Both the position numbers and the translations under genes were made by a program. From the NCBI GenBank assembly GCA_951406725.2, contig OX597824.1, positions 91,326,001 to 91,390,000 of the forward strand: a DNA stretch of 64,000 bases, in the 5' to 3' direction. This DNA is from Octopus vulgaris. Lineage: Eukaryota. Of this stretch, positions 1,381 through 54,725 are shown piece after piece (within the stretch, counting starts at the first letter, position 1; each line of letters opens with the position of its first letter). The notes under the pieces are model-generated. The model had not been told where the DNA came from. It worked only from the letters and a program-made list of their open reading frames with translations, and did no database searches.

Positions 1381-2094
1381 CCGGACAAAATCATTTAAGG
1401 CATTTCTTCAGATCCATAAAAGTCAGTTCAAACGCCACTTAGGTTGACTTGACCTTTCCTCACTTTGGGGTCAATGAAATAAGTACCAATAATAAATCTT
1501 TTCCCTTTGCAAACACTGATAGGGCACAGAAAGTGTGTCTATAGCCAGCTGGAGGAGGTGTCGTCCTGGGGCTACAAACTACAGTAGCATCCACCCTTAG
1601 GGGTTAGCCATATTTAAATGGCAAATATACGTCACGAAATAAGTACCATTTGACCATTAGGGTCGATACTAGTTTTGTGCCAAGATTTTTAAAGAATTAT
1701 CTCATATTAACGACCTTTTATGCTTTGATGTCTTATCTATTAAGAAGAGGAAGGACCGAGGAGGTACAATTGTTGTACCGAGGCCGTCACCTTCATTGAG
1801 ATTACTGCCACCACAAGCACATACTGCGACCTCGGCTATCAGAAGAGATCTCAGCCCTTCATGTTGCACCACTGTTTATCTTCACCAAGACCAATGCTGC
1901 CATCAATACTGACACTGAGTCTAAAACATTCACGGATTCCACACCACCAGAGGACCTGCAAATTCAAACTCCCCCACCACCACCACCACTACCACCACAA
2001 GAATGCCACGCCTACACAACAACCAGATATCTTACTCCACCTTGTAACATTGCTACCCCAAATCTACCCTAGTCTGTCAAACGTCTTGCTTAAG

Positions 2095-12291: not shown

Positions 12292-12692
<401 letters not shown>

Positions 12693-28518: not shown

Positions 28519-28708
28519 CATCGAAAAATACCTTAAGTATGAGAACCTAGGTTCGAAATTTCCCCAAGACACCTGATGAAGGCTGGAGGTTATATCAGCC
28601 GAAACGTGTTAACAACAAACAAGATGAGGACAAATATCTGTCAAATGTAAATAACGTAAATAATGTAAATAATGTAAATAATTCCTCATCTCTTAAATAG
28701 AGAACTGT
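28383..28708 (+). mobile_element. tRNA-head/(AAT)n/HHR element, copy 2
   Basis: A box TGGCATAGTGG 28386-28396, B box GAGTTCGATTCC 28429-28440, (AAT)n, then GACAC-CTGATGA-A-GGCTG...CAGCC-GAAAC-GTGTT 28568-28610, (TGTAAATAA)n tail. Confidence 0.82.
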
Positions 28709-42781: not shown

Positions 42782-43327
42782 ATATATATATATATATGTG
42801 TGTATTATAGATATATGTATGTGTATGTGTGTATAAACATTCTGATGCACCCTAAGAAAATATTCTACCAATACAGGCTGTGACCTGCTTGTGACCTGTC
42901 TGTCACACAAATGTTTATACAAGCCTACATTCTGACACCCAGCTTTACATAATGCTTTGCTAAACCCGATCAATAGGACATTGGCAATTTACAATCCCTC
43001 TCATTTAAACAATGGCAGCTGTTTCCTTAGAACAAAAACATTCTTGGTCAAACCTGAAAAAATCTCTCTGACACATTTCCTCGTTACCGAAATCTTATAC
43101 ATATTCATCTTGTCCTTCCCTTATACACCCACTTCCGTGTCCCTATAAAATCATGATACCACGCCCGGTTTCAATATATACAGCTACAATCTCCAAATGG
43201 GCGTACCTATAAAAAATCTGTGTATAAGGCTTGAAGGAGCAAATTAAACTACAGTCTGATGACGGCAGTTAACCGAAACTTCTCTTTCACTGTCAATTAA
43301 TATGGAACCGTACTTACTGAGTGATCA

Positions 43328-43806
43328 TGCAGGACACCGAGATGGTGTCAGCTCTTCTGGTGACGTTGATGTTCGCCTGGGGCTAAATGCATCAGTAACA
43401 CCCCCACCACCCCGCCCTGACCCTAGCCACATTCAGATGGCTTATGTTATAGAGCAGTTACTGTTTATATCTCGCTCAGAGATTTATTATTGTTATCGAA
43501 CGGATTTTCTACGCCAGTGACTGTGGTTACTGTGAAAATCTATATATCCAGCCTGTAGAGGAAGTCCCTCAACGAAGAGCGGTGCTTACCATACGTTGAC
43601 AAGAGGCAATAACCTCGAAACCGGTCCGTGTGTAGTATCCGTATCTTCGGGGAGGCTGATCTCCCTTTGCAGGCTGGCAAGGACACCGAGATGGTGTCAG
43701 CTCTTCTGGTGACGTTGATGTTCGCCTGGGGCTAAATGCATCAGTAACACCCCCACCACCCCGCCCTGACCCTAGCCACATTCAGATGGCTGATCCCCCT
43801 TATGTT
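43328..43806 (+). mobile_element. Retrozyme-like / Penelope pseudo-LTR-like element: 1.3 units of a 349-bp monomer
   Basis: Exact 112-bp direct repeat 43331-43442 = 43680-43791, enclosing one type I HHR in a long rod. Confidence 0.75.
43590..43632 (+). ncRNA. Type I hammerhead ribozyme (U3-A8 variant)
   Basis: CATACG-TTGACAA-GAGG CAATAA CCTC-GAAAC-CG-GTC-CGTGTG: stem I 6 bp, stem II 4 bp, palindromic stem III ACCGGT, GUC triplet ending at 43626. Confidence 0.75.
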
Positions 43807-54115: not shown

Positions 54116-54230
54116 ATTTTTTGCAAGCTAGTACTTATTCGATCGGTCTCTTTCGCCAAACTGCCAAGTTACTGGGACGTAAACCCACCACTATCGGTTG
54201 TCAAGTGATGTTTGGGGGATACATACTTAA

Positions 54231-54536
54231 TATTTCTGATTACGGTAACCAGTGAATAGATTTCACTGTAAATAGATATATTTGTGAAGGCTGGACGGGC
54301 ACCTCAGTCAGCAGATCTCACTATCCTGGGCTGATGACGGGTTAAGACCCAGAAACATGCATGTCCTCAGAAGTGAATCTTGGCTGTTGGGGGTGCTTGC
54401 CTCCCCTTCACAAATATAAGGACACAGGAAATGTGTCAAAGCTGACAGGAAGCGTTCGATGCTTCCTAGGGCTAAACAGCGGTGGTGTAATTCCCATACG
54501 GGACTGTCACGTTAAGTTGACAGTATACAACCACTC
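54231..54536 (+). mobile_element. Highly structured retrozyme-like element of about 300 nt
   Basis: Rod 54277-54418 closed by a perfect 14-bp pair TATATTTGTGAAGG/CCTTCACAAATATA with an HHR at its tip, plus several flanking hairpins. Confidence 0.72.
54326..54370 (+). ncRNA. Type I hammerhead ribozyme
   Basis: CTGGG-CTGATGA-C-GGGT TAAG ACCC-A-GAAAC-ATGCAT-GTC-CTCAG: canonical core, palindromic stem III ACATGCATGT, GUC triplet ending at 54365; C-A mismatch at the base of stem II. Confidence 0.8.
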
Positions 54537-54725
54537 TCTCTCTATATATATATACGTATATACGACGGGCTTCTTTCAGATTCCGTCTGCCAAATCCATT
54601 CACAAGGCTTTGGTCAGCCCGATGCTATAGTAGAAGACACTTGCCCAAGATGCCACGCAGTGGGATTGATCCCGGAACCATGTGGTTGGTAAGCAAGATA
54701 CTTACCTCACAGCCACTCCTAAAGC

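Follow-up and report, generated by a model that had tools for sequence, protein, structure and literature searches.

A window of 64 kb, the whole stretch of octopus DNA that was analyzed, contains at positions 54227-54538 of the plus strand a sequence that we interpret, with fair confidence, as a 5'-truncated copy of a non-LTR retrozyme, pasted into the chromosome by the reverse transcriptase (RT) and GIY-YIG endonuclease of a Penelope-like element (PLE) from a predicted circular RNA. The element is most likely an additional member of the known class of retrozymes and not a captured viroid. An earlier note, made from the sequence alone, had placed an element of about 300 nt at 54231-54536 and proposed a viroid-like or retrozyme RNA. 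The limits are now 54227-54538, the full unit is 353 nt, and it is the retrozyme half of the proposal that is supported, by dispersed and partly tandem 353-nt units with a type I hammerhead, a covarying structure and insertions of more than one unit. The other half, an integrated copy of a viroid-like RNA, is not supported, since the family resides in the genome, has a number of diverged sister families and is inserted with junctions of PLE type.

The copy and its hammerhead

The single copy corresponds to unit positions 44-353 of the 353-nt family A unit, lacks the first 43 nt and is 94% identical to the unit of locus L016. Its 5' break falls in the loop of a tail hairpin, a remnant of which (54227-54243, plus strand, as for all parts of the copy) holds S2 (unit 53-60), a 3'-end site to which 48 of 121 terminal arm ends map. 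A CAGTG...CACTG hairpin followed by a TA-rich box occupies 54250-54283 and is a possible snRNA-type promoter, a weak and post hoc assignment. The imperfect rod of 142 nt that bears the hammerhead at its tip, as described in the earlier note, is recovered by folding at 54277-54418 and is supported by compensatory changes between families A and B. It is followed by a multi-hairpin 3' domain (54420-54520; z -4.28), which is the most conserved part between subfamilies in the alignment and is likely the region that a PLE protein would recognize. The copy ends in an A/C-rich 3'-end site, S1 (54523-54538), to which the other large group of terminal arm ends maps (69 of 121) and at which reverse transcription of this copy would have started; (CT)n(AT)n lies directly 3' of it.

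The copy sits in the CA/TA linker of a SINE-like host repeat (54172-54720, outer limits approximate, no strand assigned). This linker is 47-110 nt long in uninterrupted copies of the host repeat compared with 350 nt here, and about 30 nt of it are absent at the copy. No target duplication is visible. The claim that the element has no ORF, terminal inverted repeat or tail holds for the last two features at this copy, but the family has a PLE-type tail, and one 89-aa ATG frame, which begins within the ribozyme and extends into the flank, is present and looks incidental.

The type I hammerhead (54326-54370) is identified by its sequence, by constrained folding and by a type I descriptor that only 2 sites in the 64-kb window pass. 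Stem I is CTGGG/CTCAG (54326-30/54366-70), the core is CUGAUGA (54331-37, with C3 at 54331) and GAAA (54352-55), stem II is GGGT/ACCC (54339-50), and stem III is the palindrome ACAUGCAUGU (54355-64), in which ACA pairs with UGU around a UGCA loop. Cleavage is predicted after C54365 of a GUC triplet. The palindromic stem III can pair with itself (self-duplex of -13.3 kcal/mol) and therefore fits cleavage as a dimer. The description of the hammerhead as canonical is apt insofar as CUGANGA, GAAA, NUH and stems I-III are all present in type I order. It is not apt for positions 10.1 and 11.1 (54338/54351) at the base of stem II, which are C and A, so that the G10.1-C11.1 (purine-pyrimidine) closing pair is absent, nor for Rfam, scans of which with the window and two sub-regions gave no hammerhead or other credible match, either at the gathering cut-off or with the limit relaxed to E <= 10. 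G10.1-C11.1 is called highly conserved in one account (PMC4209133), and our literature search found no paper on a mismatch at G10.1/C11.1 in hammerheads. The core is on one strand only, with no minus-strand hammerhead core in the copy.

All of the pairings listed in the earlier note are found in the sequence and in its minimum-energy fold (-116.3 kcal/mol). Comparison of the folding energy with shuffled sequences, a check named in advance, gives a z-score of -5.43 with 0 of 100 shuffles as good; the rod alone has a z-score of -5.5 and the minus strand also scores -5.06. Because 25 of the 106 tiled 306-nt tiles of the window have z < -4, the z-score alone is weak and was rejected as sole proof. 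Simple repeat makes up 21-89% of 10 of the 14 top-ranked tiles checked and 0% of the hammerhead tile. The active core is not part of the minimum-energy fold and lies 3.8 kcal/mol higher (-59.2 vs -63.0).

The copy differs from the family majority at nine positions, two of which adjoin stem I, where the deviation at 54371-72 causes loss of the sixth pair. Since it has one ribozyme only, the copy is likely unable to release a monomer, and it is likely an ordinary dead-end insertion.

The family and its conserved fold

The family A unit of 353 nt was defined by alignment of 29 copies, and copies run head-to-tail across the unit boundary. A search of the 2.8-Gb genome gave 71 matches from 40 scored candidates. 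A 20-nt core of the family has 57 exact matches in the genome (control 0) and is kept in 16 of the 29 aligned copies, from which about 100 hammerhead-bearing copies are estimated; the genomic copy number, another of the checks proposed earlier, is thus that of a dispersed family. The copies differ pairwise by 5.9% on average, and the core is intact in 26 of 29. A superfamily motif has 738 exact matches (control 0), which puts the superfamily at 738 or more. Sister groups B, C (360 nt), D and E have the same layout as A. A literature search on this octopus family (hammerhead, retrozyme, cephalopod), with Repbase and paper supplements outside its scope, found no paper.

The base of stem II differs among the families. 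C-A is found at 10.1/11.1 in 32 of 34 family-A cores and again in family D, a sister family with different stems; the mismatch is a family trait and not, as had been supposed, a lesion to be repaired. Family B has U-U at these positions in 28 of 29 cores, together with U4C in 27 of 29, and in family C the pair is A-U or G-C. Families C and E also have U3-A8 in place of C3-G8, a covariation described for PLE hammerheads (PMC4209133). Direct multimers of 2-5 units are found at L013, L163, L165 and L166-170, with two hammerheads in L013 (one of them mutated), three in L163 and three in L165. Family-A direct tandems with two exact cores number 0 in the genome.

Family E is represented in the window itself by 1.3 tandem copies of a 349-nt unit with rod-plus-hairpin layout (43330-43793, plus strand), which has a U3-A8 core, the canonical G10.1-C11.1 pair, an ACCGGU stem III and a predicted cut after C43626. 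Just upstream of it is a lone CTGATGA...GAAA (43256-43278, plus strand) that fails the type I descriptor. A diverged piece of retrozyme 3' domain is found at 1500-1621 (plus strand; nhmmer E 4e-5).

The structure of the element is under selection. One A copy and one B copy share 80 pairs, among which are 10 double compensatory and 6 wobble changes. In 19 sequences, 91% of cells are paired compared with 34-44% in slid controls, and three of the six pairs of stem I are changed on both sides. This covariation, which is better evidence for the fold than the z-score, reflects one subfamily split with few events, and its shuffle control ignores relatedness. The natural cut-to-cut monomer of L013, folded as a closed circle, has a z-score of -8.4 and is 67% paired. 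A precedent for an imperfect base of stem II is the axolotl retrozyme hammerhead HHR_Amex2, which has U-U at the same place and is described as cleaving to 22% in monomeric form, as cleaving more efficiently when dimeric and as forming circles (PMC7229834).

Insertion junctions, template and rival explanations

The insertion junctions were compared at 80 independent A/B loci (90 examined, 10 duplicates merged). Terminal arm ends lie at S1 or S2, sites about 57 nt apart, in 117 of 121 cases, and 16 more arms read through, all of them into another unit. Head-to-head insertions number 37 independent cases (46 rows, 9 duplicates dropped), of which 33 have one S1 end and one S2 end (P about 3e-8 vs independent use). 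Target duplications in these inverted insertions are 11-14 nt in 15 and 6-9 nt in 6, lengths that may include 1-3 nt common to the element end; the remaining 16 are in microsatellites or have no duplication. There are no LTRs, and the duplications, where present, exceed 4 bp as in non-LTR retrozymes. Purified PLE protein in vitro uses two neighbouring internal positions to begin reverse transcription, which results in the tail (PMC11167929), and PLE insertions are described as typically having inverted arms, a one-sided tail and 8-10-bp duplications (PMC8557442, PMC3846280). Since the S1/S2 ends, inverted arms and duplications match these published marks, the element is likely a non-LTR retrozyme pasted by a PLE.

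(CT)n(AT)n commonly comes after an S1 end (L001, L006, L015, L022, L023, L025, L027, L042, L048), as if the last bases of the element seed a new microsatellite. Two loci 167 kb apart (L149 and L150, G000:C9) have a private inversion junction and private variants in common, yet their target duplications are different and their S1 and S2 ends are swapped; apparently, the head-to-head composite was mobilised again in one piece.

The 5' ends bear on the template. Of 67 partial 5' ends, 23 extend beyond the cut site and not one maps to within 3 nt of it, which indicates that a ligated circle or an uncut multimer, and not a cut linear monomer, served as template. Uncleaved linear precursors would account just as well for the lack of 5' ends at the cut. 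At or just 3' of the rod base (unit 215-260) there are 27 of the 67 ends, a count biased by the choice of loci (L001-L060), as expected if RT stalls there. The five units of a family-C array are 0-0.9% apart and about 10% from other copies, a pattern compatible with rolling-circle copying and also with tandem duplication at a later time; among the three units of L137/L163 there are differences. A comparison of arm differences within and between loci (5.1% vs 6.2%, 20 of 28 pairs, which are not independent) was set aside as too weak. Contigs of 4 presumed-RNA runs cover the L013 unit in short pieces and are uninformative on ends, strand and circles.

In the mechanism that we propose, source loci with two or more units would be transcribed, possibly from an internal snRNA-type promoter. 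Successive hammerheads, probably dimerized via the palindromic stem III, are predicted to cleave 3' of GUC, and the freed 353-nt monomer would be closed into a circle by a host ligase. A PLE enzyme, whose footprint is seen at the junctions, would then make nicks in AT-rich DNA that are staggered by about 11-14 nt, and would begin reverse transcription at S1 and S2, two fixed sites within the unit with a spacing of about 57 nt. That synthesis crosses the ribozyme junction and unit boundaries is seen in the insertions, which are 5'-truncated, partial-tandem or head-to-head, the last with one S1 and one S2 end. The copy at 54227-54538, for which synthesis presumably started at S1, stops at unit position 44 and landed in the microsatellite linker of another repeat.

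The genome contains intact 781-aa RT+GIY-YIG frames. They belong to a young PLE family (L092:1745-4087, G000:C16) with many near-identical copies, a second open frame (359 aa) upstream and a terminal repeat with a U3-A8 hammerhead-like motif. The U3-A8 core and an ACAUGU stem III are common to this PLE and family C, and no end sequence is common to the two. Comparison of families A and B with 42 PLE loci (blastn and nhmmer; the loci are dominated by one family) found no homologous terminus, and the A/B matches within these loci are separate retrozyme insertions only.

Among the rival explanations, one retains the element and its insertion by a PLE but dispenses with the circle: the template would be an uncleaved linear read-through of partial tandems, with a hammerhead that is slow, protein-dependent or vestigial. 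It would account for insertions that cross the cut site intact, for an active fold 3.8 kcal/mol above the minimum and for the weak 10.1/11.1 pairs of A, B and D along with the U4C of family B (27 of 29 cores). In PMC11167929, ribozyme mutants were without effect on insertion in vitro and uncleaved RNA was the dominant PLE substrate, and in a preprint on retrozymes one of nine tested dimers cleaved (bioRxiv 10.64898/2026.07.22.740005). We consider this explanation unlikely, although it deserves weight, since the core and three stems are kept, with compensatory changes that include U3-A8, across otherwise different families, and since the axolotl retrozyme with U-U both cleaves and forms circles (PMC7229834). 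A solo pLTR, left when reverse transcription of an autonomous PLE stopped short of its ORF and copied only a truncated 3' end, would share with PLEs the tail, the inversions and the duplications, and PLE fragments do occur within 1.5 kb of 7 of the 80 A/B loci. These fragments are delimited by ends of their own, located downstream or in inverted orientation; none is found in the 64-kb window, and 7 of 80 against none there is no clear enrichment. The sequence past the unit is another unit (the 16 read-through arms and the multimers) and never an RT frame: no RT and GIY-YIG frame is joined to the units, and tblastn matches are separate neighbours. Three loci that leave the unit at 131-140 were considered as partner candidates and contain a zinc-knuckle LINE-like insert instead. 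The solo pLTR is on these grounds improbable.

The remaining rivals are still less likely. Hammerhead viroids and satellite RNAs have a small, highly paired unit and replicate from RNA to RNA, usually with ribozymes on both strands. The octopus family is genome-encoded, has a ribozyme on one strand and is inserted with retroelement marks. An endogenised RNA of this type, captured by accidental reverse transcription, would explain the small size of the unit, its extensive pairing, its hammerhead and its favourable fold as a circle, but it is very unlikely in light of the one-stranded core, the hundreds of copies in several genome-resident sister families with common insertion sites, and the fixed S1/S2 ends, which speak for programmed and not accidental capture. 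The possibility that the inverted arms are terminal inverted repeats of a MITE-like fold-back DNA element can be practically dismissed: although 37 of 80 loci have inverted arms and L149 and L150 have one inversion junction with different target duplications, neither arm lengths nor junctions are constant, the ends are of two kinds (S1 vs S2), inverted arms are absent from 43 of 80 loci, and copies are as a rule truncated at the 5' end.

Known systems and a LINE-like insert

On sequence grounds, the family has the testable features of an animal non-LTR retrozyme, except for G10.1-C11.1 and an Rfam match. Its 353-nt non-coding unit with a type I hammerhead fits the 150-450 bp range of these elements, and two or more tandem hammerheads are present in the family and absent from the copy at 54227-54538. 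Cervera and de la Pena (2020, PMC7229834) describe animal units of 350-390 bp in mussel and 353 bp in axolotl. The octopus family resembles the elements in that paper in unit size, type I hammerhead, short palindromic stem III, lack of LTR, PBS and PPT, self-paired monomer, duplications > 4 bp and coexisting PLEs, and its C-A in family A has a parallel in the mismatch (U-U) at the base of stem II of HHR_Amex2. It differs from them in that they form long arrays, whereas family A is mostly dispersed, truncated or head-to-head and is known here from DNA.

A link of retrozymes to PLEs has been proposed (PMC7229834) and has been argued from homology by Li, Clavereau and Pollet (bioRxiv 10.64898/2026.07.22.740005). 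The latter concluded that retrozymes are non-autonomous PLEs that use the same mobilising machinery, with monomers dispersed over chromosomes as in the octopus. They rely on co-occurrence and on pLTR homology, for the most part in vertebrates, in contrast to the insertion junctions used here, and no homologous pLTR was found for the octopus family among the 42 PLE loci. Endonuclease-bearing PLEs, as described (PMC11167929, PMC8557442, PMC3846280, PMC4209133), are like the octopus family in having two adjacent RT start sites of which the first is A/C-rich, a one-end tail, an inverted 5'-truncated arm, partial tandems, AT or microsatellite targets and a type I hammerhead. The octopus family differs in having no ORF, a tail of about 57 nt instead of 30-40, duplications of 11-14 instead of 8-10 nt, and full-size stems I and III instead of a minimal hammerhead.

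The retrozyme insertion route and PLE copying of circles are so far proposals in print. To these proposals the family adds counted junction evidence, namely fixed S1 and S2 sites, one of each per inverted insertion, 11-14-nt duplications and no stops at the cut. Its short copies can also serve as natural substrates when PLEs are assayed in vitro, and the natural series C-A, U-U, A-U and G-C at 10.1/11.1 is a ready test of the tolerance of that pair.

Two further leads concern transcription of the element and its use as a target. TCAGT is found at -55 to -62 in 17 of 20 U2 loci, and all five families checked have (C/A)AGTG at -81 to -88 relative to hammerhead position 3, which weakly suggests an internal snRNA-type promoter with a putative start near 54307; the lead is weak because the match is of five bases and post hoc, and because an RNA hairpin alone could explain the conservation. 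The LINE-like insert (L196, G000:C1:12589627-12591263, minus strand; also L208-L232) is 1.64 kb long with a 311-aa zinc-knuckle frame and no RT frame, and has a 9-nt duplication in L196. Its 3' end followed by a hammerhead core 14-19 nt later has 33 exact genome matches, with at least 5 spacer sequences, and 21 of 56 exact 22-nt LINE-like ends have a hammerhead core 14-19 nt on. Of the 22 LINE-like loci inspected, 19 are within retrozyme sequence, at least five subfamilies are hit, and related inserts are stacked at the same site in L233 and L235. A search for literature on LINEs targeting retrozymes found no paper.

These leads can be combined into a more specific and tentative reading, which we regard as possible but doubtful: a minimal, self-promoted circular-RNA parasite of PLEs, comprising a 353-nt circle with an snRNA-type promoter of its own, an active hammerhead in which C-A has become fixed instead of G10.1-C11.1, two coupled priming sites that would each be used once per insertion by one enzyme complex, and a specific LINE landing site 14-19 nt before the core in at least five subfamilies. 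If this reading is true, the element would be a compact natural substrate for rolling-circle reverse transcription by PLEs.

Elsewhere in the window, a repeat that has a tRNA-like head and an (AAT)n tract occurs twice, each time with a minimal hammerhead-like motif near the 3' end (12377-12408, minus strand, and 28573-28604, plus strand). Both motifs fail the type I descriptor, and the repeat is possibly a SINE with a PLE-derived end.
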